Source: a virus (lineage: Duplodnaviria; Caudoviricetes). Taken from it: a DNA stretch of 64,000 nucleotides. Location of the stretch: IMG/VR virus record IMGVR_UViG_3300006752_000009. The stretch is one strand, 5' to 3'. The position numbers were made by a program, and so were the translations under genes. The notes beneath the pieces are model-generated. The model had not been told where the DNA came from, searched no databases, and saw nothing but the letters and a program-made list of their open reading frames with translations. The stretch's first letter is position 1. Each line of letters begins with the position of its first letter. Positions 19,402-39,414 of the stretch are shown one piece after another.

Positions 19402-20421
19402 ATGACAGATAGACTAAAAATACCTATGGATAAAGTTATCGCTGATTATCAGCGAGGGATGAACACAGAAGCACTTGCTGAAAAGTATGGTGGTTCGGGT
19501 CGGACAATCCAAAGAAGGCTGAAAAAAGCAGGTGTGTGGGAAGCCTACAAGAACCCGAATAGTCTTTTTTATGAGGACGATCCTACAGAGCCTCCTGTGG
19601 ACTATGAATCAAGGTGTGTCGAACTTGAAGAAACTCTTGATCTCCTTGTAAAACAGATCAGTGGTGGACATATCTATCACCCTCAAGACTCAACCCTTGC
19701 AAGAGTCTTAGAGTCCAAATGTGAGTCTGATATAGCATCGGCTATCGAGATCAGCCTCAGACAACACTATCTTGAGGAAGCAATCGCCTTACGGTTTAAA
19801 GACTTGCGTAGAGCGAATGTTAGCTTAGATGGCATCTGGTTAACCCTTTCGGAAGGGTATGCTCTACCTGTGTCCAAAGTGAAGCGTGTAGTCTCTAATC
19901 AACTTGGTGATGTATCTTCGAGGTATGAACTCTTTAAGAGTGAGATCATTGAGGCATACCTCAATGGTGCTTCTACTAGAGACTTGGGTTTTCAATGGGA
20001 TACCTCAACCGATGTGATGAGGAGACAACTTAGAGTATGGGGTGTATCTGACTCAAATAGAGTGAAGAAGAAACGCATCAGACATGACCACAGAGACCAA
20101 CTACCTATGCAAGACATCATCAAAGACTACAAGGCTAATATGCCGATGACTAGGTTGGAACAGAAATACTATGTATCAGCATCTTTCATCGAAAAGTGTT
20201 TGAGAAAGATGGGTGTGCCTAAGCGACCACCTCTCCCGACAGGGGCGAAACCAAAACAAGTGGAGTCTACAACCTTAAGCCTACTTGTCTCTGACTATAA
20301 TGCAGGGTCTGGCGTGAGCTTCTTGAGTAGAAAGTACAACTTGAGTCGGTCTTCAATCAAACGGTCTTTAGAGCAAGCAGGTGTTGAGTTGAGGCGAAAA
20401 GGGCGATCAAAGAAAGTGTAA
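19402..20421 (+). CDS. Multi-HTH repeat DNA-binding protein
   Basis: Repeated DYxxGxxxxxLxxKYxxSxxxIxRxLxxAGV units (4-5 copies). Confidence 0.7.
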   Translation: MTDRLKIPMDKVIADYQRGMNTEALAEKYGGSGRTIQRRLKKAGVWEAYKNPNSLFYEDDPTEPPVDYESRCVELEETLDLLVKQISGGHIYHPQDSTLARVLESKCESDIASAIEISLRQHYLEEAIALRFKDLRRANVSLDGIWLTLSEGYALPVSKVKRVVSNQLGDVSSRYELFKSEIIEAYLNGASTRDLGFQWDTSTDVMRRQLRVWGVSDSNRVKKKRIRHDHRDQLPMQDIIKDYKANMPMTRLEQKYYVSASFIEKCLRKMGVPKRPPLPTGAKPKQVESTTLSLLVSDYNAGSGVSFLSRKYNLSRSSIKRSLEQAGVELRRKGRSKKV

Positions 20422-20883: not shown

Positions 20884-22863
20884 ATGGCATACAATACAAA
20901 ACATCCAGATAATGCAAGTAAGCGTTCTTTACAAAGACACATCCTCAATCGGATGATGAAGCACCCACACAAGACTCAACCGTATACCATTGTCTGTCTG
21001 CCAGGTCGGAAGTGTTGGGAGGTCGAATACCTACTGCCCTACAAACACGATACTTATGAGGGAGTCGGACCAGGTGTAGAAAAGATTATCGCACTTGAGC
21101 AAGACCAAGAGGTTTTTGAGATTATCCAAGACAAGTACAAAGATAACGATATGGTTGAGGTGTTAAACACTAGCACAACTGAGTTTCTTTACACTTATGA
21201 GGATCAAGTCGATTTAATCTACTTTGACTACTACTCGTACTTTTCATCAAAAGTGAAGCAAGACATTGAGATCATGTTTGAGCGTAAGGTGTTATCTGAG
21301 GGTGGTAAGTTCATTGTCAACTTTTTAGCTACTAGGGAGTCTGTACCCAATCAGATCATGCAAGACCGACTCGTTAGAAAGTTCTGTGAGATTGGCAAGT
21401 ATGAGCTTGATGTGGATAGTCTTGATGAGGATCGCAAGAGGTGTGTTGCGTTTAATGGTTTGATAGGTCGTTATAGGTCAAAGTCTATTAATGATAGGAC
21501 TTACTCTCAAGGTAATAACTATGTTGCTACTACAGCACCTTTATGGCACAGATACAAAACCTTAGCTGGTCATTCGATGTTGACAGGTTATTTCACACTC
21601 AACTCTTACCCCTCCAAGCAAAGCAGAGGAGCACTCTATTATGCTGAGGAAGTGTGGACAACCGATCCTGTTCGTTGGGGTATAACAGACTGGAACACAG
21701 AAGTAAGCGTTAAACCTCAGCAAAACTACGACATTTGGAAAACGCGGGTTGAGGACTTTTATGCGAAAAACCACTACACACCATCAAGTTTAGACTTAGG
21801 TCGTACATCAATCAATTGTTTAACTCAGATCATTCGTGATCTTGGTTTGTGCCCTAGACATGATAGGACTGTAGAGGACATTAAAGGTGAGATTGATCGC
21901 ATTTATCAGAGGGTGGGTGTGGTTTGCCCCTTTACAGTGGCTCAAGCGAAGCTCGGACTCAAATCGGGTAAGAATGAGAAGATGAATGTACGCATGATTA
22001 TTGATTATTGCGAGGAAAAGGGTTATCCACATCGCCTCCTTTTAAATCCAATCAAAACGAACATCAATCAGTTAAATACTGTTAAGGAATACCTCGACCA
22101 CCTTCAAGCAGATAAGCCACCATCAAGTTTCCCTAAGTATCGCAACCTGTATTTTACGATCTTGGGTAGAGACTGTTCTTTTAAGAACGCTCATAACACT
22201 AAGTTAGCTTTAGAGGAGTCTCTGATGCGTGTCGGGTTGACTAAAGATGGTGAGATGACTGTTCAATACACAGATCAGCAGTTGATTGATATGTACTATA
22301 AGAAAGACATTACGATTAACGCTCTAGCTTCTTTGAGATTAATGTCTCGCCCTTTGATGATTGAATACCTAAAAGGGCTAGGGGTTGATGTGAGGCATAA
22401 AAATGATCGCAATAAAGACAAGATCACTCCCGAAAAGGTGCTTCGGGAGTTTAAGAAGAATGAGTCAATCATTGAGGTCGCTGTCAAGTTTGGTGTCAGC
22501 ACCAAGTATATCAAAGACATCTTAGATGAGTTAGGTGTAGCACCAGCTAAAACAGGTGGGTATATCAACCTTGATGAACAGGCTTTAATCTCTGATTACA
22601 AGTCGGGTATGACTTGTCCTCAAATCGCTAAAAAGTATGGTGTTCAAATATGGGTCGTTCATAGCAGACTCAAAAGTGCAGGGATAAAAGTTAAAGAGAG
22701 GGGAGGTGGGGTGCGTATCAATCTCCCAAAGGAAGAGATCATTGCTGACTATCAGTCGGGGCTAAGTATGGCTAAGATTGGACGCAAGCAATTTGTGAGT
22801 GGTGGTACGATTAGTAAGCGTTTGAAAGAGTGGGGTGTGGCTAAATCATATAATAGACCCTAA
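20884..22863 (+). CDS. Class I SAM-methyltransferase-like N-terminal domain fused to HTH repeats
   Basis: IVCLPG...IIALEQD...VDLIYFDY...LSEGGKFIVNF; C-terminal DYxSGxxxxxIAxKYGV repeats. Confidence 0.5.
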   Translation: MAYNTKHPDNASKRSLQRHILNRMMKHPHKTQPYTIVCLPGRKCWEVEYLLPYKHDTYEGVGPGVEKIIALEQDQEVFEIIQDKYKDNDMVEVLNTSTTEFLYTYEDQVDLIYFDYYSYFSSKVKQDIEIMFERKVLSEGGKFIVNFLATRESVPNQIMQDRLVRKFCEIGKYELDVDSLDEDRKRCVAFNGLIGRYRSKSINDRTYSQGNNYVATTAPLWHRYKTLAGHSMLTGYFTLNSYPSKQSRGALYYAEEVWTTDPVRWGITDWNTEVSVKPQQNYDIWKTRVEDFYAKNHYTPSSLDLGRTSINCLTQIIRDLGLCPRHDRTVEDIKGEIDRIYQRVGVVCPFTVAQAKLGLKSGKNEKMNVRMIIDYCEEKGYPHRLLLNPIKTNINQLNTVKEYLDHLQADKPPSSFPKYRNLYFTILGRDCSFKNAHNTKLALEESLMRVGLTKDGEMTVQYTDQQLIDMYYKKDITINALASLRLMSRPLMIEYLKGLGVDVRHKNDRNKDKITPEKVLREFKKNESIIEVAVKFGVSTKYIKDILDELGVAPAKTGGYINLDEQALISDYKSGMTCPQIAKKYGVQIWVVHSRLKSAGIKVKERGGGVRINLPKEEIIADYQSGLSMAKIGRKQFVSGGTISKRLKEWGVAKSYNRP

Positions 22864-31741: not shown

Positions 31742-32689
31742 ATGCCAAAGGCAATCAATCTAACTTCATCATGTGGAACATATGACTTTCTTCGCCCTCA
31801 GTTGGCTAAGGGCAGTCATAAGGGCAAGAATGTCTTGGAGAACATCGCAGGGTCAGCTTCTTGGGTGGGCGAGATGAAACTCGATGGGCATCGTATGCTC
31901 GTATCGTCTACCTGTGCTTGGTCAAGGATCGGCAAGGACATCGCTCGTATGGATCATATCCAAAACGAGTGTCCTGTGGGAACTTTGCTAGATGGTGAGA
32001 TCCTCCCTAAGAGTGGAGCAGAGGGTTCAGATCGTGTATCGAACCTTCGGGCTGATGACCCTACAGCTCTTGGGTTCGTGGCTTTCGACATCTTGTATCA
32101 TGAAGGTCAGTATGTCGGTGATCTATCTTGGGACAAGCGTAGAGTTATCCTTGAGTCTGTCATCGAGGACAGCATGGAGCATATCAGCTTGAGTCAACTC
32201 TACTACATGAACGAGTGGAGTACAGAACAACTCATGGAGATCGCTTCTGATCGAGAGCATGAGGGTATCATGCTCAAGAAGGTAAACGCTCCATACAAGG
32301 CAAACTCACGCTCTGCATGGGTGAAGCATAAGTTCACCGACACCCATGATGTGGTGATCGTGGACGCAAACGCAAAGCCTAGTGAGTGGCGAGTCCGACC
32401 AGGTGAGGTCTATCGTCAAGATGGAAAGCTCTATCCCGAAGGTCTGCATACCGACCCTTGGATCAAGGGGTATGTCGGGCTTAACTATGGCTTCTATGAC
32501 CAACAGGGAACGCTCCGTATCGTAGGCTCACTTGGTGAGACTGGTCCTCGTGAAGATATGGAACAATATGTGGGTCGGGTAGCCGAGATCAAGGCTTATG
32601 GACAGTACCCTACAGGAGCGTTGCGACACCCTGTCCTTGAGCGTTGGCGAGAGGATAAACTACCAGAGGACTGTACCTTTGACTTTTAA
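31742..32689 (+). CDS. lig: ATP-dependent DNA ligase (minimal adenylation + OB domains)
   Basis: Motif I EMKLDGHR, LLDGEI, FVAFDIL, EGIMLK, WVKHK, LRHPV. Confidence 0.88.
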   Translation: MPKAINLTSSCGTYDFLRPQLAKGSHKGKNVLENIAGSASWVGEMKLDGHRMLVSSTCAWSRIGKDIARMDHIQNECPVGTLLDGEILPKSGAEGSDRVSNLRADDPTALGFVAFDILYHEGQYVGDLSWDKRRVILESVIEDSMEHISLSQLYYMNEWSTEQLMEIASDREHEGIMLKKVNAPYKANSRSAWVKHKFTDTHDVVIVDANAKPSEWRVRPGEVYRQDGKLYPEGLHTDPWIKGYVGLNYGFYDQQGTLRIVGSLGETGPREDMEQYVGRVAEIKAYGQYPTGALRHPVLERWREDKLPEDCTFDF

Positions 32690-32702: not shown

Positions 32703-32999
32703 ATGAAGAAACCAAGTTTACTGATCGTGAAAAGCCGAGTAAAGATTGACCCTACCTTTGAGAACCATATCGGGTATATCGACTTCAGCTTTGCTAACCG
32801 AGAGTACAAAAAGTTTGAGGGCATCTATCTCAAGTCTTTTGATAGTCGTAAAAACTCTCCTAGATTTAGATCGGGTCTGACCCAAAGTCAGACCAAGCTC
32901 ACAAACACGATCTCGATGAACTTAGTTGACTATAAAGGTCTTGATGTAGGCTCATTTCTTGAGAGCTTACAGTCAGTTTTCAATGTGGTCGAGGGATGA
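32703..32999 (+). CDS. Hypothetical protein
   Basis: Start reassigned to MKKPSL (AAGGAG SD). Confidence 0.55.
   Translation: MKKPSLLIVKSRVKIDPTFENHIGYIDFSFANREYKKFEGIYLKSFDSRKNSPRFRSGLTQSQTKLTNTISMNLVDYKGLDVGSFLESLQSVFNVVEG
32979..32999 (+). repeat. 21-bp direct repeat, left copy (ttcaatgtggtcgagggatga)
   Basis: Identical to 33588-33608; partial 13-nt copy at 33061-33073. Confidence 0.9.
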
Positions 33000-33078
33000 A
33001 CAGGCACAAGATAAAAGCCAAAGTCTCAATGTCTTGGGTTTCTTGGAGATCTTAAGATCAGTCTTCAATGTGGCTCAA

Positions 33079-33199
33079 TAGTTTATTTATACCTACACAT
33101 AAGTGATCTCAATCAACCTTAAACAATGGAGAAATCGTTATGAGAAGATCTGCCAGTGAAGTAATCCGTAATCTTGAGAGTCGTATTGCACAACTTGAA
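33079..33199 (+). promoter_or_regulatory. Leader cassette B (class I motif + 5'UTR + MRRSASEVIRNLESRIAQLE)
   Basis: Aligns with the other copies. Confidence 0.85.
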
Positions 33200-33568
33200 A
33201 AATCTGCAAAGTCTACTCCGATTACATTGGAGTCTCCAGGTAGTCAGATGAGGGGTACTGTAAATACTCAGACTGTAAACGGTTTGAAAGAAATGCTCAA
33301 ATCCGTACAAGAAATGTACGACATGGGTACATATATTGAAGACCCTAAAGATGAGTTTGAAGAGATTAATGTTTCTTGGGACTATAAAGGTTGGATTGAT
33401 CTCGGAAACAGTATTCAGTTCCAGGTCAATCACGAAATCAACTACGATGGTAACCCTTACCTTGAGGTATCTAAAGAGGAACTTTGTAGAGCCATGTGTG
33501 CAGAGGGTCTTTGCGATGACCTTATCAAGAAGTTCTTAAAGAGAAACTTAAAGAACCATTCTATGTAG
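33140..33568 (+). CDS. Leader-bearing hypothetical protein B
   Basis: 142 aa, MRRSAS leader, acidic body. Confidence 0.75.
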   Translation: MRRSASEVIRNLESRIAQLEKSAKSTPITLESPGSQMRGTVNTQTVNGLKEMLKSVQEMYDMGTYIEDPKDEFEEINVSWDYKGWIDLGNSIQFQVNHEINYDGNPYLEVSKEELCRAMCAEGLCDDLIKKFLKRNLKNHSM

Positions 33569-33575
33569 GATTCTT

Positions 33576-33845
33576 TTATCCCTCGTCTTCAATGTGGTCG
33601 AGGGATGATTTAGAGACATAGACAGGAGTGTGCTCTCCCCAATATGCACCGAGTACATTAAACTCGTACCACTCCCAAGCCATTTCATAGGCTCTTTCCT
33701 CATCAGTTTCTTCATCTTGAAACTCATTTTTCCAATGAGAAATCATCCTGTCGAGGTCATACACAAGAGCGTAAGGCTTTGAAGCTACACCTATAATCAT
33801 GCTGTCAAATACTGATCTCGGTTCAAGGTAAACAAGATTTTCCAT
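33576..33845 (-). CDS. Hypothetical phage protein
   Basis: Start reassigned to MENLVY (GGAG SD); AWEWYEFNVLGAYWGEHTPVYV. Confidence 0.6.
   Translation of the reverse strand: MENLVYLEPRSVFDSMIIGVASKPYALVYDLDRMISHWKNEFQDEETDEERAYEMAWEWYEFNVLGAYWGEHTPVYVSKSSLDHIEDEG
33588..33608 (+). repeat. 21-bp direct repeat, right copy
   Basis: Identical to 32979-32999. Confidence 0.9.
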
Positions 33846-33939
33846 TTTTTTGCTCCTTTTGAGGTTAGTTTTGTATAATACCAATGTGAGTGTTATTGAA
33901 CGCTCCGATGATCTTTGAAAACTTGTTGAACTTAACTTG

Positions 33940-34899: not shown

Positions 34900-34998
34900 C
34901 GCTTGATTGGCATAAGACCTCTTATTGGAGATTTCTCTAATAGGGTTAGTTCTCCTTTAAGAGATCAAACTTTGGTTCGATTCCAAATCGAGCGACCA
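34900..34998 (+). ncRNA. tRNA-like RNA with encoded CCA, weak D-arm and greatly extended anticodon arm
   Basis: Acceptor cgcttga/tcgagcg + A + CCA; T tttgg-ttcgatt-ccaaa; ~45-nt hairpin in place of the anticodon arm. Confidence 0.6.
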
Positions 34999-38331: not shown

Positions 38332-39414
38332 ATGATTGGAGATGCAGTGCAGGAGATCAAGAAATACTCTTTTGAACAAGAGATACATGGAACGACCGTT
38401 CGTGTCGAACTACCCGACTACAAGATTAGAGAAATCAGCGAGTCCGAGGGGAAGAACTTTGATCAGTTCTTAAAAGACACGAACGCTAAAATTGTCGGAA
38501 CTATCTATCCCGATACTTTCCCAAAAGGAGCAGAACCTTTTACGACTCATCTTTTGGATGTGCGTACAAAAAATACCGATTTCAGTTATTATCACGCTAG
38601 CTATGATAAGAACGCTAAAAGAGACTATGCGTATCACATGAAACTCATTCCATCGGGTGAGTTTGAAGCCGTAAGGTCACCGAATCAATCTAACTGCGAA
38701 CGAGACAATCCTCATAAGTATCTTGATACTATGCCTAAAGAGGGTTCAATCAAGGTTAAGATCACTCGCCCCTTTTGGATTGGCACTCACATGGTAAGTG
38801 GGAATCTCATCTCACATTATGTTCGGAAGTCTGCAACGAGAAAACCATCAAGAGATTGGAGCTTTGAAAGTACCGCTAGGTATGAGCATCTTTGTAATGA
38901 ACTCTCCGAAGCAATCGGTTTAGAACCTTGTTATTTCAATAACGAAGTAGACATCACTAAGAATGGCTTCAGATTGCCCACAGAAGCTGAGTGGTATTAT
39001 GTCGCCAAAGCTAATGAAGATTTCGTCTATTCGGGTTCAGACAATATAAATTCAGTTGCCCATTGGAGAGGTGGTCATGGTCTTAAATGGTACAACTATA
39101 ACCAAGTAGGGAAACTAAAGCCTAACGCTTGGGGTATGTATGACATGAGTGGCAACGGAAATGAACTTGTCCATAACTCATTTGGTACGCTCAAAGGTAG
39201 ATACTCTAGCAACAAAGAATGCCCTATGGGTGAGCTAGATGGAGAGGGTTATCTTGTAGACCCTATTTCAGAGATACGCACTAACTATTTGGTGGCTAAA
39301 GGAGGTTCACATGAACCTTACGAAAATGACTGGTCGGCAACAACTTGTCGTATCGACTTTAGAAACACTTATGCCCATCACCCTATGTTTAGACTTGTAA
39401 GGAACGCACTATGA
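38332..39414 (+). CDS. Formylglycine-generating-enzyme (SUMF1/CLec-fold) domain protein
   Basis: GFRLPTEAEWYY, KPNAWGMYDMSGN, KGGS, terminal FRLVR. Confidence 0.8.
   Translation: MIGDAVQEIKKYSFEQEIHGTTVRVELPDYKIREISESEGKNFDQFLKDTNAKIVGTIYPDTFPKGAEPFTTHLLDVRTKNTDFSYYHASYDKNAKRDYAYHMKLIPSGEFEAVRSPNQSNCERDNPHKYLDTMPKEGSIKVKITRPFWIGTHMVSGNLISHYVRKSATRKPSRDWSFESTARYEHLCNELSEAIGLEPCYFNNEVDITKNGFRLPTEAEWYYVAKANEDFVYSGSDNINSVAHWRGGHGLKWYNYNQVGKLKPNAWGMYDMSGNGNELVHNSFGTLKGRYSSNKECPMGELDGEGYLVDPISEIRTNYLVAKGGSHEPYENDWSATTCRIDFRNTYAHHPMFRLVRNAL

Follow-up and report, generated by a model that had tools for sequence, protein, structure and literature searches.

The window analysed here, a 64,000-nucleotide stretch of an uncultured marine giant phage, carries a small gene cassette between two convergent genes, bracketed by a 21-bp direct repeat. 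We consider it probable that this is a moron-like cassette which entered a hot-spot junction and reached its present arrangement through two recombination steps. This reading draws on the repeat itself, on empty sites and a donor-type allele in relatives, on a remnant of a second copy of the upstream gene (X'), on a switch of nearest relatives across the locus, and on variable repeats and ends around related cassettes elsewhere. We infer that the enzymology was general phage recombination with illegitimate joining, without a transposase specific to the element. The features of the locus are as follows.

31742-32689: ATP-dependent DNA ligase gene, first in the local gene order, before gene X.
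32703-32999, plus strand: gene X, complete, 98 aa, of no known family, C-terminus ...SVFNVVEG*.
32976-32999: left (outer) repeat copy, exact over the 21 nt at 32979-32999, with GTT where the right copy has GTC.
33000-33081, plus strand: X' remnant, 82 nt, the degenerate 3'-terminal part of a second X gene of divergent sequence; old frame QAQDKSQSLNVLGFLEILRSVFNVAQ*.
33061-33073: inner repeat copy GTCTTCAATGTGG, 13 nt, identical to 33585-33597.
33074-33139, plus strand: cassette 5' module, with the box TAGTTTATTTATA (33079-33091), a 5' UTR and the ribosome site GGAGAA (33128-33133).
33140-33568, plus strand: payload ORF142, an N-terminal MRRSASEVIRNLESRIAQLEK leader followed by an alpha/beta domain; stop codon TAG.
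33569-33584: cassette 3' tail GATTCTTTTATCCCTC, 16 nt, homologous to the tail in contigs L017, L052 and L048.
33576-33608, plus strand: hairpin, with one arm in the tail (ATCCCTCG, 33578-33585) and one in the right repeat (CGAGGGAT, 33599-33606).
33576-33845, minus strand: gene Y, 89 aa, phrog_13182, function unknown.
33585-33608: right repeat copy, comprising the inner 13 nt and the outer 21 nt and here forming the end of Y.
From 34089: tRNA cluster, past gene Y.

The closest complete relative in IMG/VR, G001 (375,691 bp; the record that holds contig L001), is syntenic with the window at 81-92% nucleotide identity. Gene X has its nearest relatives in L037 (91% amino acid identity) and L001, and the body of gene Y is closest to the lineages of L050 and L038 (87-89% nucleotide identity), in which the junction is empty. 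Nearly all of the 33 clusters of X homologues end in ...FNVVEG. The C-termini of Y vary widely among 20 clusters, and in the window this terminus is altered to ...SSLDHIEDEG*. A blastn search of the GenBank phage collection with the locus gave no match, and an IMG/VR search with Y returned no contigs beyond those already found with X. Elsewhere in the window, a 360-aa ORF at 38332-39414 carries an FGE-sulfatase domain (PF03781, E 7.8e-13).

The repeat that the sequence-only reading had seen around the 588-bp segment is exact. TTCAATGTGGTCGAGGGATGA occurs at 32979-32999 and 33588-33608 and nowhere else in the window, even with three mismatches allowed, and no such 21-mer is expected there by chance (100 shuffles). 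With one mismatch it extends to 24 nt (32976-32999 and 33585-33608, 96% identity). The 13-nt partial copy reported at 33061-33073 is real, and the coding assignment was correct, the left copy specifying the end of X (FNVVEG*) and the right copy the SSLDHIE of Y. The left copy corresponds to the conserved X/Y overlap, here forming the end of X.

An assembly artefact had been named as one way in which the repeat could be spurious. Four other assemblies (L011, from JGI 3300010149, and L012-L014, from three Logan runs) reproduce the filled structure with 100% identity across 1362-1501 nt, and the left joint is spanned at 32884-33034 by an error-free contig of a further study (run X6); the structure is real. 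IMG/VR yielded no sequence matching the left junction, and none of the contigs of four sequencing runs linked sequence across the insert or around it. Neither the left- nor the right-junction pattern turned up in metagenome scans of a collection that evidently lacks the L011 contig. We also observed that TCATT(T/C)CTTGA can pair with TCGAGGGATGA at window positions 32950-32999 and at L001:3785-3833. The overlap patch may thus already have been the 3' arm of a weak hairpin before any insertion, with z-scores (-0.9 and -1.3) that are not significant.

Alignment with related phages, proposed as a check on the reading, returned an empty allele in four lineages comprising 14 contigs (L001-L003, L004-L009, L038/L039/L041 and L049-L051). 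Each has a single repeat copy, and X (...FNVVEG*) overlaps Y (...SSLDHIEN* or a variant) by 27-36 nt, the overlap being 33-36 nt in the last three lineages. The pre-insertion state that had been predicted, with one copy and Y ending in SSLDHIEN*, exists in L001-L003, which read ...GTTTTCAATGTGGTCGAGGGATGACTTAGAGAC... with X ending in FNVVEG*. Amino acid identity of X to that of the window is 79-80% in L004-L009 and 70% in L038/L039/L041, and L049-L051 carry the closest Y (93%). The tail-to-tail overlap of X and Y was found in every relative readable across the junction except one, which has a different insert. As X and Y overlap directly in four relative lineages, the segment is an insertion, as had been claimed, and it lies between genes that are adjacent in related phages. 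The complete genome of G001 contains no payload homologue anywhere; from this and the four empty lineages, the empty state is ancestral and widespread.

By homology with other copies, the core of the cassette extends from about 33077 to 33581, and homology of its 5' module with other contexts likewise begins at ~33077. The box TAGTTTATTTATA, the UTR, the ribosome site and the leader are common to six other cassettes of the window and to ~20 sites in G001. All seven cassettes in the window share this promoter-leader module, and the box aligns with those of the L017 and L015 cassettes; we regard it as the cassette's own putative promoter. The box, UTR, 20-residue N-terminal leader and variable payload that characterize MRRSAS leader cassettes are all present. 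GC content is slightly lower in the cassette, at 38.0% vs 42.8%, and no inverted repeat pairs its ends.

ORF142 (142 aa) belongs to no known family. It has homologues at 72-82% identity, and IMG/VR yielded no relative. Comparison of its structural model (pLDDT 83.8) with PDB and BFVD gave no meaningful match (TM <=0.36, normalised by model length), and nothing in the fold suggested a nuclease or recombinase. Y owes its new final codons (E G) and its stop to the 3' tail. Across the tail and the right repeat, the hairpin in its 71-nt context as plus-strand RNA folds at -25.1 kcal/mol (z -3.6). Lacking a T-run, it does not qualify as a canonical terminator, and a terminator scan gave none. The stop codon of the ORF142 family is TAG in the window and in L015, L017, L052 and L053. 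Inside the tRNA cluster of the window, ARAGORN predicts a TAG-reading tRNA (anticodon CTA, 99 nt) at 34900-34998.

Between the left repeat copy and the cassette lies the X' remnant, which aligns with the 3' end of X with a score of 16, against 4.2 +/- 1.9 in 2000 shuffles. A donor-type allele is visible in L052, an 824-nt contig that carries the payload homologue P0002 and runs through an intact X', the promoter-leader module, payload, tail, overlap and the start of Y'; sequence upstream of its X' lies outside the contig. This X' is 53% identical to X at the amino acid level and ends in ...SVFNVV*. Window positions 33000-33023 are identical to L052 132-155 (24/24), positions 33029-33635 are 86.6% identical to L052 212-823, and the window lacks 51 nt that L052 has between these two matches. 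Because of these matches and the missing 51 nt, the stretch 33000-33081 is what a later deletion left of the final ~133 nt of an X' like that of L052. With only 86.6% identity to the cassette block of the window, L052 is a relative of the donor and not the donor itself.

The duplication in L052 comprises 14 nt only, GTTTTCAATGTGGT, and there is no outer repeat. L052 represents the earlier state, in which the primary insertion is still visible, and the inner copy at 33061-33073 is a piece of the X'/Y' overlap that this insertion left upstream of the cassette. Occurrence of the cassette at this locus in a relative without the duplication had been named as evidence against arrival with target duplication, and L052 carries it without the 21-nt repeat. 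Two other accounts of the remnant were abandoned. A start at the conserved ...TCGATGAAC... of X, with GATGA as microhomology, was dropped, as L052 places the start ~133 nt before the X' stop, without microhomology. Decay of an in-situ duplicate of the window's own X was rejected because the remnant is only 67% identical to X, against the 24/24 and 86.6% matches to the L052 allele.

The flanks of the cassette have different affinities, as the following nucleotide identities to the window show.

X body, 32703-32975: 80.6% to L001, 70.7% to L038, 72.4% to L050.
Y body, 33609-33845: 77.2% to L001, 87.3% to L038, 88.6% to L050.
Y with its 5' flank, 33556-33921: 77% to L048 (blastn).

The switch between L001 and L038 is significant for both the X and the Y bodies (Fisher p 0.009 and 0.005), and the X and Y trees differ. 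Although the tail|overlap junction of L052 recurs in L048, the Y of L048 matches that of the window at only 77%. Because the nearest relatives switch and the L048 Y is this distant, the locus is a three-way mosaic of an L001/L037-like X, an L052-like remnant with cassette, and an L050/L038-like Y. The exchange on the right probably took place in the conserved overlap patch.

At the left joint (32999|33000), a complete X stands ahead of the remnant, with no visible microhomology and exactly at the X stop codon. As X ends with nearly the same overlap as Y in every lineage, an out-of-register joint here automatically yields a near-perfect direct repeat. The outer 21-nt repeat would therefore be the product of a second, non-homologous joint between two lineages, a conclusion that follows from the X' remnant, from L052 without an outer repeat and from the differing nearest relatives of X and Y. 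The sequence-only reading had proposed that the cassette arrived with target duplication. The empty sites uphold the insertion, and the remnant, L052 and the mosaic flanks argue against the 21-nt repeat as a duplication made in one event.

The X/Y junction itself is a hot spot. The contig with the closest X, L037, carries a different insert right after the X stop (L037:474-1711) and stops before Y. In L048, all that is left of the payload is its last 13 nt, which stand with the tail next to unrelated DNA. Several further observations concern this region. The L037 insert includes a gene for dihydroorotate dehydrogenase (PF01180) and another that is homologous to the 355-aa gene of L024. The unrelated upstream DNA of L048 (reverse strand, 1-230) has a long T-run, and that contig may reflect either a further rearrangement or a chimeric assembly. 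In L005:3430-4270, an additional ORF of ~240 codons, preceded by a TATAAT-like box of its own, lies between Y and the first tRNA; L008:5550-5620 is without it, another gain or loss adjoining the same junction.

That these units move had also been proposed, and the payload family was found in at least six other genome contexts; the cassettes do relocate.

L015: after a deoxynucleoside kinase gene; no flanking repeat found, the contig ending 52 nt past the gene.
L017: in a cassette array, followed by a metallophosphatase gene; 19-nt flanking target-derived repeat.
L021: between ribonucleotide reductase and a 169-aa gene; 23-nt flanking target-derived repeat.
L024: between a 142-aa gene and a 355-aa gene; 31-nt flanking target-derived repeat.
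L026: between a 217-aa gene and a metallophosphatase gene; 59-nt flanking target-derived repeat.
L053: with a gene on the same strand next; the upstream part of the contig is too short to reveal a repeat.

Target-derived repeats thus flank the payload in all five evaluable contexts, at 14 nt (L052, reused in the window), 19, 23, 31 and 59 nt. Across contexts the left copy ends 51-79 nt before the ATG, and the start of the right copy lies anywhere from -3 to +7 nt relative to the stop, or at +16 nt in the case of the X/Y junction. Of the L017, L021, L024 and L026 sites, L021 is the sole one with a verified empty counterpart, present in L027 and in G001 itself (L028), and its left junction falls within 8 nt common to the target and the cassette promoter box. 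An IMG/VR search with the neighbour gene of L026 gave no match. Similar duplications, which had been suggested as something to look for beside other cassettes, accompany this payload at other sites; around the window's six other leader cassettes, by contrast, no repeat reaches 10 nt. Nor do repeats longer than 11 nt flank four further gene-sized indels that separate the window from G001.

Some of these sites preserve traces of earlier events. L017:1830-3470 holds three leader cassettes in tandem, with a 19-nt copy of the downstream metallophosphatase 3' end (TTAATCYTCGACTCGCTCA) after the second and third cassette ORFs and a somewhat shortened one (TAATCCTCGACTCGCTCA) following the first; the pattern looks like successive cassette additions at one gene end. 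In L024:2340-2390, a 22-nt metallophosphatase 3'-end remnant (TTAATCCTCGACTCGCTCAAGA) lies upstream of the cassette and the gene is absent from the locus; it records an earlier neighbourhood, as the X' remnant does in the window. Four independent target duplications (window, L017/L026, L021 and L024) have TCAA in common, as CTTCAAT, GCTCAAG, TGTCAAG and ACTCAAA, a coincidence that may be due to chance.

The earlier statement that no transposase is visible held. Pfam identified none in 10 nearby ORFs, none is present among the 17 window ORFs scanned, and rve, DDE_Tnp_1 and resolvase domains are all absent from the complete relative G001. The sole recombinase-like match in G001 is a weak Phage_integrase hit (PF00589, 25.4 bits; G001:C1:62279-62695) within a 491-aa open frame. 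Tyrosine recombinases make no such target duplications, so this would be the wrong kind of enzyme. Two large window ORFs (19402-20421 and 20884-22863) gave weak helix-turn-helix matches (HTH_58, HTH_28, HTH_23), and the latter a weak methyltransferase-like match too (Cons_hypoth95); only two HTH_58 matches were not below the Pfam cut-offs, and neither ORF has a transposase catalytic domain. The fixed duplication length of IS elements and MITEs is not seen either, the outer repeat of the window (21/24 nt) adding to the range given above, and the cassette ends vary. The variable repeat length, the variable ends, the scraps of former flanks and the lack of inverted termini and transposase families all argue against a transposase.

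We propose the following course of events. In step 1, the cassette would have entered the X'/Y' overlap in a lineage with a divergent X', a stage seen alone in L052, duplicating 13-14 nt of the overlap, shortening X' by two residues and giving Y' an ending from the cassette tail. In step 2, a non-homologous joint would have set a complete L001/L037-like X, through its stop, before the last ~133 nt of X'. X ends with the conserved overlap that also ends Y, and this joint would thereby have made the outer 21-nt repeat. A later 51-nt deletion would have cut the X' remnant to 82 nt. On the right side, the cassette block would have been joined to the Y of a third lineage, most simply by homologous exchange in the overlap patch. 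More generally, two independent joints would connect a cassette to its target. Where convergent genes abut or overlap, selection would keep only joints that spare both ends, which duplicates the stretch between the joints, and an established cassette could then spread among relatives by exchange in conserved flanks. Against this two-step account, the joint between the X stop and X', without microhomology and exactly at the stop codon, requires luck or later trimming. Repeats at all five evaluable payload contexts and at none of the comparison indels and cassettes hint at something specific to the cassette or to convergent junctions.

Insertion of a mini-circle, in the manner of Campbell integration, is an unlikely alternative that nevertheless predicts the exact structure observed, including the left-hand GTT and right-hand GTC. 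A circle of X' end, cassette and patch, excised from an L052-like genome, would enter an empty site by exchange in the 24-nt patch, so that each flank ends up with a copy of it. This patch is nearly invariant among lineages, and PeSL mini-circles with re-insertion on short homology are described for T4-type phages (PMC2839356). However, 24 nt is very short for homologous integration, closure of the circle would still require one illegitimate joint, and X and Y of different lineages are not predicted unless the recipient was already mosaic at the patch. The converse history, with the filled state ancestral and the cassette lost from relatives by deletion between the direct repeats, is extremely unlikely. 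Recombination between the 21-nt repeats would leave exactly the empty site of the relatives, but that site is found in all four relative lineages, down to 70% amino acid identity in X, and G001 has no payload homologue. The X' that is intact in L052 and a remnant in the window fixes the direction of change.

A further alternative is a non-autonomous mobile element, for which an enzyme acting in trans would make long, variable staggered cuts at convergent gene ends and leave genuine target-site duplications. The 14-59 nt target-derived repeats in every evaluable payload context, their lack at other indels of the window and G001, and the location of the insertions at convergent gene junctions would all fit. 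We nonetheless judge this very unlikely, for neither the repeat length nor either end of the cassette is constant, terminal inverted repeats are absent, G001 offers only the weak tyrosine-recombinase match and no transposase families, and the payload has no nuclease or recombinase fold. Moreover, the outer repeat of the window is demonstrably secondary, and the left junction of L021 in the 8-nt identity of target and promoter box is what microhomology joining would give. The broader proposal that ORF142-type cassettes are new non-autonomous mobile units of giant marine phages, with a dedicated trans-acting activity that targets convergent gene ends and makes long variable duplications, is distinctly unlikely, and is entertained because every evaluable site of the payload family has a repeat. 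Were it true, the recombinational history at the X/Y locus would be only later traffic.

Among known systems, the cassette of our preferred two-step reading resembles the morons of lambdoid and other tailed phages, reportedly described by Juhala, Hendrix and colleagues in 2000. Like them it is an accessory extra gene with putative signals of its own, lies between genes adjacent in relatives, has slightly lower GC and brings no mobility gene. Unlike morons, it has neighbours that overlap, so its insertion duplicated the overlap; it also has a family-wide N-terminal leader and recurs at several junctions, each with its own target repeat. With IS elements and MITEs it shares direct repeats of target sequence and the existence of empty-site alleles, but its repeats range from 14 to 59 nt, it has neither defined nor inverted termini and no transposase, and its outer repeat would stem from a second joint.

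T4-type phage recombination needs under 50 bp of homology (PMC2839356), and movement of PeSL is proposed to proceed by general recombination on short homology, possibly through mini-circles (PMC2839356; PMC4122927). PeSL resemble the present cassette in being small ORFan cassettes with their own promoter (putative here) and direct repeats, gained and lost among close relatives of large lytic phages. The PeSL repeats consist of a promoter and stem-loop motif on both sides, whereas the repeats seen here are the coding ends of the neighbours, different at every site, and the promoter-leader module stands on the 5' side only; the window cassette does not carry a promoter-stem-loop motif on both flanks. 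Phage mosaicism by illegitimate and homeologous recombination (PMC2327257) also features joints at gene borders, switches of nearest relative and short conserved patches as exchange points. What differs here is that an out-of-register joint left behind part of the gene of the second parent, and that the intermediate allele persists in nature. New are the anatomy of this junction and an intermediate found in nature.

A direct repeat alone is no mark of transposition. In a packed phage genome, a flanking repeat can be a by-product of joints that keep overlapping genes whole, which calls for caution with mobile-element calls based on repeats. Giant marine phages carry dozens of small accessory genes, the origin and turnover of which are poorly understood. 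This locus offers an unusually complete natural record, with the empty site, the first insertion product and the later out-of-register recombinant, of how a cassette was gained and then passed between lineages.
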